A stretch of DNA of 64,000 bases from an uncultured Erysipelotrichaceae bacterium. Lineage in GTDB: Bacteria; Bacillota_I; Bacilli_A; RFN20; CAG-826. The stretch covers positions 80,961 through 144,960 of the forward strand of contig OMVV01000002.1 of assembly GCA_900314585.1 (NCBI GenBank), read 5' to 3'. Under the pieces are notes generated by a model. That model saw only the letters and a list, made by a program, of their open reading frames with translations. It was not told the DNA's origin and ran no database searches. Position 1 is the first letter of the stretch. Each line of letters begins with the position of its first letter. This document shows, one piece after another, positions 15,900-21,937 of the stretch. The position numbers and the translations under genes are program-made.

Positions 15900-15937
15900 G
15901 TCAACTTTGTTGACTTAAATCATAGAGTGTTTTATAA
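15900..15937 (+). promoter_or_regulatory. Promoter of the priming glycosyltransferase operon with overlapping palindrome
   Basis: TTGACT (15910-15915), 16 bp, TATAAT (15932-15937); GTCAAC-ttt-GTTGAC palindrome at 15900-15914. Confidence 0.6.
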
Positions 15938-16631: not shown

Positions 16632-17692
16632 TGCGTATTCTTCATGTTCTTAAAACTGGTACTATCGGTGGCGTCGAAAAGATGTGTCTCGATATTGCTA
16701 AAAAGTGCCCAGAGCATGAATTTTTATTTATAAAAGATGTTGGATCTATTCCTGAGGAAATCCGTAAAGTTGGCAATAAGGTTTATACCTTCTTCCCAGA
16801 AAAGAAGAAATTAACTTGGCGATGTGCGCATATCGCTCGTAGAAGAATCGATAAGATGATTTATTACAATCGTTATGATGCGATCGTTTTCCATCATGGA
16901 TCAAGATTCCTCTGGTCTCTTGCTAGATACATCAAGAGATATTTCTCTTTCTTAAAGGTATTCCTTTATATCCACTCTGACTCACAACTTGTTCTTTCAG
17001 AAGAGCAAACTGGTTTTAGAAATCGTCGTCGTAAACTTGTTCGCGCTGCTGAATCGGTTAACGGCATTTTAGCAATTTCAAACTCTGCCAAAGAAAGAAC
17101 AATTGAGATTCTCCCTCAATTAAAAGATAAGATTCACGTTGTCCATAACGGCGTCGACTTACAAGAATTTTCTTGCAAAGGACTTAAGAATTTTCATAAT
17201 CCACTTCGTTGTATTTATGTTGGAAAGATTTCCCAAGATAAAGGTATCCTTAATCTAATCGTTGCGTTCAATAAATTTGAAAACGCAACATTAACTGTTG
17301 TTGGTATGGGTGATGTTTATGATGAATGTCAAAAACTCGCTAACGAAAATGTCAACTTCATTGGTCGTCGTGCTAATGTTGCCCGTTTATTAAACTCACA
17401 CGATGTCTTTGTTCATTTCCCACTTCTTCATGAAGGATTTGGTATCTCAATTGTTGAAGCGATGGCAAAAGGTCTTCTTTGCATCACTAATAACAAAGGT
17501 GCGCTTCCTGAAATCTTAGAAGATGGTAGGGGTGGAATTATTCTCAATTCCTTAAGCGAACTTGAAGGCACTTTAAAGAACTTAGATGAAGAAAAAACCC
17601 GAAAATTGCGGGAAAATGCCTTAGAAATCTCTAAGAAATACTCGATTGATAATACAATTGAAAATCTCGAAAAAGTTTGTCGAGAATTCTAA
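16631..17692 (+). CDS. GT4 glycosyltransferase
   Basis: GGVEK, VVHNGVD, YVGKI...KG, EGFGISIVEAMAKG. Confidence 0.9.
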   Translation: MRILHVLKTGTIGGVEKMCLDIAKKCPEHEFLFIKDVGSIPEEIRKVGNKVYTFFPEKKKLTWRCAHIARRRIDKMIYYNRYDAIVFHHGSRFLWSLARYIKRYFSFLKVFLYIHSDSQLVLSEEQTGFRNRRRKLVRAAESVNGILAISNSAKERTIEILPQLKDKIHVVHNGVDLQEFSCKGLKNFHNPLRCIYVGKISQDKGILNLIVAFNKFENATLTVVGMGDVYDECQKLANENVNFIGRRANVARLLNSHDVFVHFPLLHEGFGISIVEAMAKGLLCITNNKGALPEILEDGRGGIILNSLSELEGTLKNLDEEKTRKLRENALEISKKYSIDNTIENLEKVCREF

Positions 17693-18792
17693 TTTTTAAT
17701 AACTTCTTCTCGATACGTATCAGCAGTATCGGGATTATATACTTCTGAAATCCACATCACTGTATGTGAATTTTTTTTGCCAACATTTGTAATTTGATGT
17801 GTATAGCCGACTTTAATTTCAACTGGATGAGGTTTATCACCCGAAACGCGATCTTTTAACAATTCATTTGTTTTGATATTACGTTGAATAATTTCACATT
17901 CACCAATAACGGTGTAAAAGATTTCTTTCTTATAGGTGTGGTAGTGGCCGCCTTTACAAATTCCTGGGTAAGAAACATTGTCAGAGATTTGGCCCCATTT
18001 CTTAGATTTATAAAGTTCTTCAAACCAACCTCTATCATCTTTTGCATAGTTAAATGAATTACCTTCATCCGAAAGATAATCACAAAATGTCTTAAATAGC
18101 TTCAATTCAAATTCATCATGAATGAGTGGAAGGTGTCTTTCTGATTCAATTTCGCCTTTAAAGTAATAAAGTAAATCAGCAAGTTTTCCTAAAGAACAAT
18201 CAAAGATTGGTTTAACGGATTGTATCTCTTTCTCGCCTTTATAATTACCTGATTTAATAACGTTAATAAAATCTTCAACAATGTCATCAACATAGTTATA
18301 GTGAACAACATAATTGCGGTCACGAATTTCGATAGGGAGATTGTGAGCGATGTTATAACAAAATGTCGCACAAGCGGAGTTATAGTTTGGTCGACCCCAC
18401 TTACCAAAGACATTTGCTAAACGATAAACATAGACAGGAAGACCAGAATCAAATAAAAGATCTTCCGCCATTTTCTTGGATTTTCCATAATCATTATCAA
18501 GTGATGCTTGAATCGAACTAGACATGATAATGGGAATAGATTTCTTTAATTCTTTAATGGTGTCGATTAACTTCTTAGTGAAATTTGTATTCCCATCATA
18601 GAATTCTTCCACTTTTAATGGACGATTTATTCCCGCGAGGTGAACAACGAAATCTGCGAGATTTACAAAGTTTTTTAAATCTTTGTCACTATTATTAAGA
18701 TCGTATTCAAGAACCTCAAAACCTTCTCTAAGTAGTTGTTTAGAGACATGCTTTCCTAAAAATCCTTTTGCGCCAGTGACAAGTATTCTCAT
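17689..18792 (-). CDS. fnlB: UDP-2-acetamido-2,6-dideoxy-beta-L-lyxo-4-hexulose reductase, CapF/FnlB/WbjC type (SDR plus cupin)
   Basis: GAKGFLG, HLAGINRP, YGKSK, NVFGKWGRPNYNS, C-terminal D.RG.F.E...KGGHYH cupin. ATG 18792 overlaps the fnlC TGA. Confidence 0.9.
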   Translation of the reverse strand: MRILVTGAKGFLGKHVSKQLLREGFEVLEYDLNNSDKDLKNFVNLADFVVHLAGINRPLKVEEFYDGNTNFTKKLIDTIKELKKSIPIIMSSSIQASLDNDYGKSKKMAEDLLFDSGLPVYVYRLANVFGKWGRPNYNSACATFCYNIAHNLPIEIRDRNYVVHYNYVDDIVEDFINVIKSGNYKGEKEIQSVKPIFDCSLGKLADLLYYFKGEIESERHLPLIHDEFELKLFKTFCDYLSDEGNSFNYAKDDRGWFEELYKSKKWGQISDNVSYPGICKGGHYHTYKKEIFYTVIGECEIIQRNIKTNELLKDRVSGDKPHPVEIKVGYTHQITNVGKKNSHTVMWISEVYNPDTADTYREEVIKN

Positions 18793-19937
18793 TCTTTTCT
18801 CCACACCATTTTGTTAACAATACCGGTGTATGATTGGATTAATTTGATGACTTTATCAGATACATTTGTGTCCGCATAGACATCGACTGGTTTACAACCT
18901 TCTTTGTTTAGTAAGGCAACTTCAACAGCTTGAAGAAGTGATTTTTCATCAATTCCCGCTAAGACAAAGCAAGCAGCATCTAAAGCCTCTGGTCTTTCGG
19001 TTGAAGTGCGGATTGAAACGGCCGCAATCGGTTTCTTAATGCTCGCGTAGAAGCTTGATTCTTCTGGTAAAGTTCCAGAATCTGAAACAACCACGAAGGC
19101 ATTCATTTGTAAGTTGTTGTAATCGATGAAGCCTAAAGGTTCATGCATAATTACTCTCTTATCAAGTTTAAAACCAGTTTGTTCAAGTTTCTTTTTACTA
19201 CGTGGATGGCAGCTATAAACAACTGGCATATCATATTTTTCTGCTAATTTATTGATCGCATTAAATAACGAATAGAAGTTTTTATCGGTGTCGATATTTT
19301 CTTCACGATGTGCGCTTAACAAAATGTATTTACCCTTTTGAAGTTTCAGTTTTCCTAAAATATCGCTGCTTTCGATTTGTTTAAGGTGTTTAGTGAGGAC
19401 TTCAGCCATTGGTGAGCCTGTGACATAGGTTCTTTCTTTTGGAAGGCCACAATCAGCTAAATATCTTCTCGCGTGTTCGCTATAGGCTAAATTAACATCA
19501 GAGATGATATCGACGATGCGACGATTTGTTTCTTCTGGAAGACATTCGTCTTTACATCTATTTCCGGCTTCCATATGGAACACTGGAATGTGGAGGCGTT
19601 TTGCCCCAATAACTGATAAGCAGCTATTGGTGTCACCAAGTACTAAGACAGCATCTGGTTTTTCTTTAACTAAGACATCATATGATTTAGCGATAATATT
19701 GCCCATTGTCTCGCCTAAGTCTTTACCAACTGCGTCTAAATAAATATCTGGTTCAGCGATTCCTAAATCTTTAAAAAAGATTCCATTTAAGTTGTAATCG
19801 TAGTTTTGACCAGTGTGGACTAATAAAGTATCAAAATAGACTCTCGCTTTATTAATCACTTCTGCTAAACGGATGATTTCTGGGCGAGTGCCAACGATAA
19901 TCATTAATTTTAATTTGTCATTGTTTTTAAAAGGCAT
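18789..19937 (-). CDS. fnlC: UDP-HexNAc 2-epimerase, CapG/FnlC/WbjD type
   Basis: GTRPEIIR, HTGQNYD, GDTNS, HMEAGNR, PEETNR, DSGTLPEE, RTSTERPEA. Confidence 0.93.
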   Translation of the reverse strand: MPFKNNDKLKLMIIVGTRPEIIRLAEVINKARVYFDTLLVHTGQNYDYNLNGIFFKDLGIAEPDIYLDAVGKDLGETMGNIIAKSYDVLVKEKPDAVLVLGDTNSCLSVIGAKRLHIPVFHMEAGNRCKDECLPEETNRRIVDIISDVNLAYSEHARRYLADCGLPKERTYVTGSPMAEVLTKHLKQIESSDILGKLKLQKGKYILLSAHREENIDTDKNFYSLFNAINKLAEKYDMPVVYSCHPRSKKKLEQTGFKLDKRVIMHEPLGFIDYNNLQMNAFVVVSDSGTLPEESSFYASIKKPIAAVSIRTSTERPEALDAACFVLAGIDEKSLLQAVEVALLNKEGCKPVDVYADTNVSDKVIKLIQSYTGIVNKMVWRKE

Positions 19938-19949
19938 TGTAGTTTCCTC

Positions 19950-21143
19950 CTAATCATGTTGACGAACTGGTCCACCAAATAGTTCCAGCTTCTTTAATAA
20001 TTTTTTCATACCTTCGACATCGAGTCTACCGGTGTTATGTGATGTATAGGAATCACCAAGGTTAAGTTTCTTATTACCTTTAGAGAAGTATTTATCATAG
20101 TTAAGATCACGGTTATCCGCGACAATTCTATAGAAGTTACCGCAATCAACCGACTTAATCATTTCTTCTTGAGTGACTAATGTTTCATATAGTTTTTCAC
20201 CATGACGAGTACCGATATATGTGATACCAGTCTTGCTACCAGTTAATTCGATAATTGCTTTTGCGAGTGTTTCGATAGTAGCGGCAGGGGCCTTTTGGAC
20301 GAATAAGTCACCTTGTTCACCATGTTCAAAGGCGTAAAGGACTAAATCAACCGCATCATCAAGAGTCATCATGAATCTAGTCATATCTGGATTGGTGATG
20401 GTGATTGGCCTACCTTCATGGATTTGATTTAAGAATAAAGGAATAACGCTTCCGCGCGAGGCCATGACGTTACCATAACGAGTTAAACATAAGACAGTGT
20501 CACCTGGAAGAAGTTGTCTACTTCTGGCGATAACATTCTTTTCCATCAAAGCTTTGGAAATACCCATCGCGTTGATTGGATAAGCAGCCTTATCAGTTGA
20601 TAAGAAGATGGCTTTCTTAACGTGGTTACGAACACAGGCGGTGATAACATTATCAGAACCAATGACATTCGTACGAACCGCTTCCATTGGATAGAATTCA
20701 CAAGACGGAACTTGTTTTAAAGCAGCAGCAGAGAAGACATAGTCAACCCCTTTAAAGGCATCGATGATTGAATCAAGATTACGAACATCACCAATAAAGA
20801 ATTTGAGTTTGTCATTCGCGTATAACTTGCGCATATCATCTTGTTTCTTTTCATCACGGGAAAGAATACGAATCTCTTTGATATCTGTGTTTAAGAAACG
20901 ATCGACGACCGCGTGACCAAAGGAACCAGTTCCACCAGTAATAAGAAGAACCTTTCCTTTTAATATAGTTGTATCTTTAGAAGCAAATTCTTGAAGCTTC
21001 TCTTTCACTCTTTCAAGTTTAAGTTGATCGGCACTGACTTCGTCAGATTCATAAGAAACATAAGTTCTAAGTGACATGCCAACGATATCAGCAGCCTCCT
21101 TTTGAGTTAACTTGTAATTTTTGCGTAATTCTTTTAATGTCAT
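19950..21143 (-). CDS. fnlA: UDP-GlcNAc 4,6-dehydratase/epimerase CapE/FnlA with N-terminal XRE HTH fusion
   Basis: N-terminal MTLKELRKNYKLTQKEAADIVGMSLRTYVSYE, then ITGGTGSFG, SRDEKKQDDMR, AAALKQVPSCEF, STDKAAYPINAMGISKA, RYGNVMASRGSVIP. Confidence 0.95.
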   Translation of the reverse strand: MTLKELRKNYKLTQKEAADIVGMSLRTYVSYESDEVSADQLKLERVKEKLQEFASKDTTILKGKVLLITGGTGSFGHAVVDRFLNTDIKEIRILSRDEKKQDDMRKLYANDKLKFFIGDVRNLDSIIDAFKGVDYVFSAAALKQVPSCEFYPMEAVRTNVIGSDNVITACVRNHVKKAIFLSTDKAAYPINAMGISKALMEKNVIARSRQLLPGDTVLCLTRYGNVMASRGSVIPLFLNQIHEGRPITITNPDMTRFMMTLDDAVDLVLYAFEHGEQGDLFVQKAPAATIETLAKAIIELTGSKTGITYIGTRHGEKLYETLVTQEEMIKSVDCGNFYRIVADNRDLNYDKYFSKGNKKLNLGDSYTSHNTGRLDVEGMKKLLKKLELFGGPVRQHD

Positions 21144-21277
21144 AATTGCACCTCAGTTGCCTATATTATATATATTCAATTTTCTAAATCAAAGAAAAAG
21201 TGCAATAACTGCATATTTCTCAAATATCAGATATCAGCAATTTCTCTTTTTAACAAATGTGTTGTATAGTATCTACA

Positions 21278-21937
21278 ATGGCTAAAAAAGAACATGATGT
21301 TTCTAAAGAAAGAGTCGACGAAATAAAATCTAAGAAGTCGGTTGTCGCTTTTTGCGCGTATTGCGATAAACCAATCTATGTTGATGAAGAATATAAAGAA
21401 GTTTCATATTTTGATGATGCTTCTAAGAAACGTTATAACAAGAAGAAACTCAATGTTGGATACGCTCATGTTCATTGCATCGAAGAAAAAGAAGCGGCAG
21501 TGGAAGAAATCAAATCTTCATATCGCCGTAAGCAACAACTTGCTTTAGCAATCTCAATCGTCAGTGGTTTCATTTCATTAGTCGCACTGCTTTTAATTTT
21601 GATCTTTTTAGCTAAGTTACATATCGCATTAAAAATCGTTCTTCCTTTAGGAATTGGTTATGTTATCACTAGTTCGCTTTACTTATTCCTAAGTGAAAAT
21701 CGCATCAGTGAAATATATAAAAAAGTCGTTAGTTATTTAGGCTTTGTGCCTATCAAGATATACGCTTCATCTTTAGATAGCCTTGCCTGGTATATCGTTT
21801 TGAAGATCTTGATGCTAATCATTCTTGTGCCACTTGCATATATTTCAATCATCTTGCTAAGTGCGATTTTTATCACAATATCACCATTTTTATTTCCGTT
21901 TATCATCACTCATCGCCACAAAGATTCTGAGCTTTAA
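21278..21937 (+). CDS. Membrane protein with N-terminal CxxC...HxxC putative Zn finger
   Basis: CAYC...HVHC, then about 4 TMs; -10 TATAGT 7 nt before ATG 21278. Confidence 0.7.
   Translation: MAKKEHDVSKERVDEIKSKKSVVAFCAYCDKPIYVDEEYKEVSYFDDASKKRYNKKKLNVGYAHVHCIEEKEAAVEEIKSSYRRKQQLALAISIVSGFISLVALLLILIFLAKLHIALKIVLPLGIGYVITSSLYLFLSENRISEIYKKVVSYLGFVPIKIYASSLDSLAWYIVLKILMLIILVPLAYISIILLSAIFITISPFLFPFIITHRHKDSEL

Follow-up and report, generated by a model that had tools for sequence, protein, structure and literature searches.

Capsule and surface-sugar pathways are normally under separate regulators. A locus in a 64 000-nucleotide stretch of DNA from an uncultured Erysipelotrichaceae bacterium (contig OMVV01000002.1, positions 80,961 to 144,960; hereafter the window, meaning the whole stretch that was analysed) raises the question of whether an enzyme of such a pathway may itself take on the regulatory role. 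The gene concerned, HTH-fnlA (19950–21143, minus strand), encodes a 397-residue protein with the N-terminus MTLKELRKNYKLTQKEAADIVGMSLRTYVSYE, in which a helix–turn–helix (HTH) domain precedes an FnlA-type dehydratase acting on UDP-N-acetylglucosamine (UDP-GlcNAc). An earlier note on this DNA had singled out the in-frame fusion, placed the gene at the head of an fnlA–fnlC–fnlB operon and proposed that the enzyme feeds back on its own genes. Judged from the sequence comparisons reported here, control of the operon by its own enzyme is very probable, and HTH-FnlA is likely to be an autoregulating trigger enzyme: pairs of HTH domains held on the enzyme oligomer would bind a palindrome (O1) upstream of the promoter, together with a second site (O2) inside the gene where this is intact, and transcription of the operon would track the amount of enzyme.

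An HTH domain fused to an intact FnlA-type enzyme

Both parts of the protein are encoded by a single open reading frame (ORF), as the earlier note had stated. The HTH part comprises codons 1–57 (20973–21143, minus strand), with helices at residues 3–9, 14–21 and 25–33 followed by a long linker helix (40–56); it matches HTH_3 of Pfam at residues 3–45 with 31.2 bits against a cut-off of 23, and belongs to the XRE/HTH_3 family. Codons 58–397 plus the stop (19950–20972, minus strand) encode a complete FnlA/CapE/WbjB-type UDP-GlcNAc 4,6-dehydratase/5-epimerase domain, with Pfam matches to Polysacc_synt_2 at residues 66–340 (6.7e-101) and to Polysacc_syn_2C (PF08485) at residues 343–387. The best NCBIfam model is that of FnlA (TIGR04130; residues 61–388, 526.6 bits), next to which PseB reaches only 305.6 bits; the score lies below the equivalog cut-off of 730 bits, which is an annotation threshold and not a biochemical one. 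In a Foldseek comparison the enzyme part matched WbjB from A. baumannii (4j2o) with a TM score of 0.92 and 64% identity, and it is 57–60% identical to CapE from S. aureus. It has the extended short-chain dehydrogenase/reductase fold of the Polysacc_synt_2 type, with a GxxGxxG motif at its N-terminus and the Polysacc_syn_2C tail, and by fold, motifs and operon context it belongs to the FnlA/CapE/WbjB group.

Since characterized WbjB starts at 'MFKDKVLLITGG', which aligns with residue 60 of the present protein, residues 1–59 are an addition in HTH-FnlA. The characterized FnlA/CapE/WbjB enzymes (4j2o, 3w1v and 3vvb) share its enzyme fold, its D–K and MxxxK motifs and its FnlC- and FnlB-type partners, but lack the N-terminal HTH. 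Residues Asp184, Lys185, Met193 and Lys197, which align with STDKAVYPINAMGISKA of WbjB, are unchanged across 68 fused sequences; the D–K pair and the MxxxK motif, in which Met replaces the Tyr of short-chain dehydrogenases/reductases (SDRs), are presumably the catalytic residues described for CapE. No second FnlA-type gene was found in the 1.04-Mb genome of the organism, where HTH-FnlA is the sole copy and, given its invariant motif residues, must still serve as the pathway enzyme. On this evidence the enzyme domain is judged to be catalytically intact and to perform the first step in the synthesis of UDP-N-acetyl-L-fucosamine (UDP-L-FucNAc).

The AlphaFold monomer has a mean predicted local distance difference test (pLDDT) score of 80, with values of 82–92 over residues 1–50 and of about 90 in the helices 3–9, 14–21 and 25–33, and its long helix 40–56 passes almost straight into the first Rossmann strand at residue 65. 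The HTH fold is matched by the C proteins C.EcoT38IS, C.BclI, C.Kpn2I and C.Esp1396I as well as by HipB and HigA2, with a root-mean-square deviation of about 2 Å over 48–50 residues for C.BclI, HipB and HigA2, while 3mlf and MqsA are nearest by sequence. The C proteins, HipB, HigA2 and MqsA are DNA-binding autoregulators.

Conservation and spread of the fusion

The domain-architecture census that had been proposed for HTH_3 plus Polysacc_synt_2 returned 56 protein clusters for residues 1–62, all of them FnlA-type fusions in which an N-terminal HTH region precedes Polysacc_synt_2, almost all 386–403 residues long and with HTH identities of 63–84%. In a species scan with one genome each, 80 of 95 matches were kept; 75 of these species genomes have the HTH fused to FnlA with the GGTGSFG motif at an identical offset. 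The carriers are rumen and gut metagenome-assembled genomes labelled Bacilli, Erysipelotrichaceae, Bacillales UBA or Tenericutes, and the sequence of the window itself was recovered in bovine and sheep gut metagenomes. In public annotation the fused proteins appear as 'polysaccharide biosynthesis protein' or 'UDP-glucose 4-epimerase'.

Among 301 genomes sampled from the order, about 40 carry the fused form (match from residue 1 or 2), all in one family and in at least 11 genera, and about 60 carry an unfused FnlA (match from residues 41–62). Identity in the enzyme part reaches 87% for some of the unfused proteins, and there are unfused forms in genera that also have the fusion. At dS values of about 1–1.4, the pairwise dN/dS ratio is 0.21 for codons 1–57 and 0.05 for the enzyme; the former value indicates that the HTH is translated and under purifying selection. 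Within it, Arg26, Tyr31 and Glu32 of the recognition helix and the LTQ motif are invariant in the 68 fused sequences.

A conserved palindrome upstream of the promoter

The boxes TTGATT (−35; 21187–21192, minus strand) and TATAAT (−10; 21165–21170, minus strand), to which the earlier note had drawn attention, resemble a promoter more closely than any other sequence of the region (10/12 matching positions, 16-nucleotide spacer), with a predicted transcription start near 21158. A Shine–Dalgarno (SD) sequence, GAGGTG (21149–21154, minus strand), lies 5 nucleotides ahead of the ATG at 21143. Most main-clade loci have a TATAAT at an equal distance from the ATG. A search for RNA evidence of the transcription start yielded no usable run; two runs of unrecorded kind gave just low-identity pieces of the enzyme part.

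Upstream of these boxes lies O1, a candidate operator of 13 bp (21201–21213; TGCAGTTATTGCA on the minus strand), which starts 70 nucleotides before the ATG and ends 8 nucleotides ahead of the −35 box; relative to the predicted transcription start, its centre is near −49. It corresponds to the TGCA-N5-TGCA palindrome noted earlier. This pattern occurs once in the window, where 1.4 copies are expected, and is therefore not significant alone; its conservation makes it highly significant. In an unaligned listing of the 130 nucleotides ahead of each fused gene, which gave 80 distinct upstream regions, the family consensus TGCAA-N3-TTGCA was present exactly in 47 and with at most one mismatch in 75, starting 55–80 (mostly 66–72) nucleotides ahead of the ATG. 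The other 563 kb of the same loci contain one exact and 62 one-mismatch copies, a background of 0.0076 per interval of the size scanned. The ten specified positions are near-invariant, the spacer is A/T, and an A-run and a T-run frame the site, beyond which the flanks are unrelated. Such counts reflect selection on the site rather than independent inventions.

The palindrome is a property of the fused loci. As controls, 20 unfused fnlA loci from the same family were taken, with enzyme domains 64–87% identical; in the 260 nucleotides upstream of these, O1 was found in 0/20, even allowing one mismatch. The site thus travels with the HTH and not with fnlA. Its position relative to the promoter varies with the enzyme lineage: in the main clade it ends 7–8 nucleotides ahead of −35 boxes of poor sequence (TTTTAT, TTGATT), and in the second enzyme clade (clade B) it overlaps the −35 box (TTGCAA-17-TATACT).

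A candidate second site inside the gene

The earlier note had also taken a TGCAC…GTTGC sequence over the ribosome-binding site as related to the palindrome. This did not hold up as a second site: what recurs there is a TGCAA half-site overlapping the SD (21146–21150 in the window; at −7 in 24/80 loci), without an O1-type palindrome. A better candidate, O2, was found in codons 7–11 (21113–21125; CGCAAAAATTACA), with the family consensus CGCAA-AAA-yTGCA. A positional scan across the loci peaks 18 nucleotides inside the coding sequence, where 35 of 80 have a single mismatch to the O1 consensus and 24 have two. The codons used argue for selection on O2 at the DNA level: Arg7 is encoded in 62/80 loci by CGC, a codon used for 13% of the Arg residues in the rest of the genes, and Cys10 by TGC in 64/73, and among 335 conserved codon positions Arg7 is the top outlier and Cys10 the ninth. 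The HTH-MNT relatives described below show neither a CGC preference nor a Cys at position 10. From the predicted transcription start O2 lies near +40, and the two sites bracket the core promoter.

Relatives of the HTH and their operators

The stand-alone proteins most closely related to the HTH have 156 residues and combine it with an NTP_transf_2/Polbeta domain (HTH-MNT; 40–47% identity), a layout that is the architecture of MntA-type antitoxins; they account for the five non-FnlA loci among the 80 kept in the species scan. Their N-terminus, MTLKELRK..LTQ....PLRTYQNYE, shares the form MTLKELRK..LTQ....PLRTYxxYE with HTH-FnlA. HTH-FnlA itself is not an MntA-type antitoxin, its partner domain being FnlA and not NTP_transf_2. 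In metagenomes, 34 of 38 distinct HTH-MNT loci have two to three copies of aCGCAA-N3-TTGCGt (background 0.078 per scanned interval) at about −136, −103 and −70 from the ATG, phased by 33 bp. A literature search on MntA/HepT operators returned nothing specific. HTH-MNT and HTH-FnlA thus have in common the HTH type, the 5-N3-5 geometry of the operators, a proximal position near −70 and the SD GAGGTG, and their half-sites, CGCAA and TGCAA, differ in the outermost base alone. They differ in the partner, a nucleotidyltransferase rather than a sugar enzyme, and in operator layout, with two or three tandem CGCAA sites in the former and one upstream TGCAA site plus one intragenic site in the latter.

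The genome from which the window derives encodes two MntA-like paralogues with the same HTH type (C11:32678-33202 and C20:29270-29794, both minus strand), which are preceded by repeated 5-N3-5 palindromes of other sequence, TaCCA-AAA-TGGCA and TGACA-AAA-TGgCA, respectively. Recognition-helix residues 29 and 30 vary along with the half-site (VS, IR, VR, QN), while R26-T-Y and Y31-E32 are constant. This is the pattern that direct recognition of the palindrome by the HTH, together with mutual insulation of the paralogues, would produce, and it suggests three mutually insulated operator specificities within one 1-Mb genome.

Proposed mechanism and alternative explanations

WbjB and CapE crystallize as hexamers. 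If HTH-FnlA assembles in a similar way, oligomerization of the enzyme would bring the HTH domains into pairs, which would bind O1, immediately ahead of the −35 box in the single promoter of the operon, and, in most relatives, probably also the weaker site in codons 7–11, and the amount of enzyme would thereby feed back on transcription of fnlA–fnlC–fnlB. By analogy with PutA and BirA, the enzyme domain may in addition sense UDP-GlcNAc, NADP(H) or the product. O1 and O2 may cooperate, and it might be speculated that they do so by looping. Repression appears to be somewhat likelier than activation, being favoured to a degree by the overlap of O1 with the −35 box in clade B, by the antitoxin-type ancestry of the HTH and by the location of O2 downstream of the start. 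Several points weigh against this picture. The sequences compared are related and not independent samples, so that the counts given above exceed the number of independent events. In the window O2 has two mismatches and, with Tyr (TAC) in place of Cys (TGC) at residue 10, is a weaker site than most relatives have; it is codon bias that supports O2, and synonymous conservation is seen at other codons too. The O1 and O2 centres are 88 bp apart in the window and 86–89 bp overall, which does not correspond to whole helical turns. The position of O1 near −49 in the main clade, moreover, suits activators as well as repressors.

This last point leads to the most direct rival, in which the HTH binds O1 as an activator, or as an activator that turns into a repressor with increasing concentration, like the C proteins of restriction–modification systems. 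A main-clade O1 that ends 7–8 nucleotides upstream of a weak −35 box has its centre at a typical activator position, the −35 boxes TTTTAT and TTGATT are poor, and C.EcoT38IS, C.BclI, C.Kpn2I and C.Esp1396I are among the best fold matches. In clade B, however, O1 occupies a repressor position over the −35 box, a site downstream of the start such as O2 suits repression better, and the closest relatives of the HTH are antitoxin-type autoregulators, a group generally known as repressors; as a rival to the favoured reading, this one is considered to be rather unlikely. HTH-FnlA also differs from the C proteins (C.EcoT38IS, 2ef8; C.BclI, 2b5a; C.Esp1396I) as a class. These share its fold and are small XRE dimers that autoregulate via palindromes before their own gene, but they are free-standing five-helix dimers, whereas dimerization of the HTH in HTH-FnlA would have to come from the fused enzyme; HTH-FnlA has sugar-pathway and locus-variable neighbours, no restriction–modification system and another operator sequence, and is not a C protein.

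It might also be argued that the N-terminal domain no longer binds DNA and has become a structural or oligomerization appendage, with the palindrome acting as a promoter element or as the site of another regulator, inherited with the 5′ module. The modelled domain has just four helices and no evident separate dimerization element, and the genome encodes other XRE proteins. Such a loss of function is opposed by the invariance of Arg26, Tyr31, Glu32 and LTQ and the dN/dS of 0.21, by the restriction of the palindrome to fused loci (75/80 versus 0/20), by its presence in many genera amid differing neighbour genes and by the paralogous HTHs whose palindromes have equal geometry but other sequence, and it is regarded as very unlikely. 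An even smaller chance is given to the fusion being an artefact of assembly, frameshift or gene calling, with an internal start giving rise to an unfused FnlA and a small HTH protein produced separately. The earlier note had described the HTH as lacking an internal start; in the strict sense this is not so, given that an in-frame ATG (Met23) and a GTG (Val46) lie inside the HTH part, but neither is preceded by an SD or by a stop codon, and at the position of residue ~58, where unfused orthologues begin, the fused gene has no start codon. Contigs from two independent metagenome runs cross the junction without gaps, and the identical junction recurs in the 75 species genomes and in the 56 clusters, from independent assemblies. 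As far as sequence data allow, the artefact is refuted. Autoregulation by the fused enzyme, more probably as a repressor, is the favoured explanation.

Evolution of the module

The HTH, operator, promoter geometry and SD have the appearance of a single module that arose from the autoregulatory HTH of HTH-MNT genes and was grafted onto fnlA. In the enzyme tree there are two deep clades: A, the main clade, which includes the gene of the window, with 62 fused and 20 unfused rows interleaved, and B, with 15 rows, all fused. The enzymes of the two clades are 62–64% identical, as distant from each other as each is from WbjB, and their HTHs are 66–73% identical, while in clade A the rate of evolution of the HTH is about three times that of the enzyme. 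On the simplest reading of these values, the 5′ module would have been exchanged between fnlA lineages. The tree needs three to four changes between the fused and unfused states; a single origin of the fusion followed by losses would also be compatible with the well supported branches.

A profile search covering 1.8 billion representative proteins found the same HTH type in other settings. In P0190 (352 residues) it occurs (MQTIKSLRKKANLTQKEAARITNVPLRTFKEYE) on a transketolase N-terminal subunit, an arrangement that was not found in the 301 genomes of the order, where 0/15 transketolase matches aligned with the HTH part of the query. P0082 (390 residues) and P0105 (342 residues) are HTH-FnlA-like, but their catalytic Met and/or Lys are degenerate and RYGNVMASRGSVIP is lost, AMGISKA being replaced by AVGMSFA or VIGLSKA; from their sequences, they are possibly pure regulators derived from the enzyme. 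Other proteins, including P0061 (703 residues), P0069 (1002 residues) and P0076 (1014 residues), have 8–13 tandem HTH-profile matches; in P0061 eight HTH_3 domains (Pfam) fill nearly the whole protein.

A wider scenario can be put forward as a tentative and somewhat doubtful extension. HTH, palindrome, promoter and SD would form a portable cassette that moves between antitoxin genes and enzymes by recombination at the 5′ end, and the hexamer would act as a metabolite sensor, in which occupancy by UDP-GlcNAc or NADP(H) re-orients the HTH pairs clamping O1 and O2; P0082 and P0105 would represent the end point of this course.

The three-gene cassette and its surroundings

HTH-fnlA is the first gene of a compact cassette in the order A–C–B, which bears out the operon context described in the earlier note. 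It is followed by an fnlC-like gene for a non-hydrolysing UDP-sugar 2-epimerase of the WecB type (18789–19937, minus strand; Epimerase_2, 1.5e-81; TIGR00236, 236.6 bits, above the cut-off) and by an fnlB/WbcJ-like reductase gene (17689–18804, minus strand; Epimerase and Polysacc_synt_C; NF047837, 322.5 bits, below the cut-off of 500). In all loci inspected the FnlC-like gene follows the fused gene and an FnlB-like gene is present, third in six loci and fourth in L008, where a 289-residue ORF intervenes; the neighbours that flank the cassette differ between all of them.

In the window, a divergent ORF of 226 codons (21257–21937, plus strand) begins 44 nucleotides from O1; its product has a CxxC…HxxC motif and several hydrophobic segments and no Pfam match. 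Since other genomes have other neighbours beside the cassette, this ORF is taken to lie outside the module. In one relative (locus L010, 3316–4795), the cassette is immediately preceded by a divergently oriented HipA/HipB-type toxin–antitoxin pair that has an HTH of its own.

When half-site position 5 may also be G (TGCAR-N3-TTGCA), the operator pattern has seven matches in the 1.04-Mb genome, of which the copy upstream of fnlA alone is intergenic, and this genome-wide scan therefore gave no further intergenic site on which a wider regulon could be based. A looser sequence, TGCAAAAAATGCA, at C24:12232, outside the window, lies about 22 nucleotides ahead of what is probably the start (MPVYKVLGDRIKKIRL) of a further HTH-like protein. 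The gene for this protein is followed, about 400 nucleotides downstream on the same strand, by an NAD-dependent epimerase-type gene, and the looser sequence is possibly the operator of the HTH-like protein itself. A further palindrome of the window, GTCAAC-TTT-GTTGAC (15900–15914), was rejected as a target of HTH-FnlA, its half-site and register being unlike those of O1, and is probably the site of another regulator.

Comparison with known systems and implications

In the gal operon, GalR represses through looping between OE and OI, which are spaced by about 114 bp. As with O1 and O2, one operator is upstream of the promoter and one within the first structural gene; in HTH-FnlA, the repressor would be the pathway enzyme itself and the spacing is 86–89 bp rather than ~114 bp.

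PutA, BirA and NadR are trigger enzymes, and PutA and BirA repress their own genes. The archaeal RbkR is likewise a bifunctional enzyme–regulator (PMC5397151). HTH-FnlA resembles all four in uniting a metabolic enzyme and a DNA-binding domain in one polypeptide and in that its candidate operator is located at the promoter of the genes for its pathway. It differs from them in that an XRE HTH is joined to a nucleotide-sugar SDR, whereas they contain ribbon–helix–helix or winged-helix domains and enzymes of other classes; effector-dependent switching is established for PutA, BirA, NadR and RbkR, and for HTH-FnlA is a proposal. In the literature collection that was searched, no paper joined FnlA with a helix–turn–helix, or Polysacc_synt_2 with HTH_3.

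At its own promoter, the committed-step enzyme of a surface-sugar pathway seems to monitor its own amount directly, and possibly also that of its substrate. The arrangement looks like a natural example of an operator, promoter and HTH module transplanted from toxin–antitoxin genes onto metabolism, and it may offer a simple one-component sensor of UDP-sugars. The order that carries the fusion consists of small-genome rumen and gut Bacilli, with no cultured representatives in these data. If the proposed autoregulation is true, a nucleotide-sugar SDR would join the short list of trigger enzymes, and in these bacteria the three-gene cassette would carry its own control wherever it lands.

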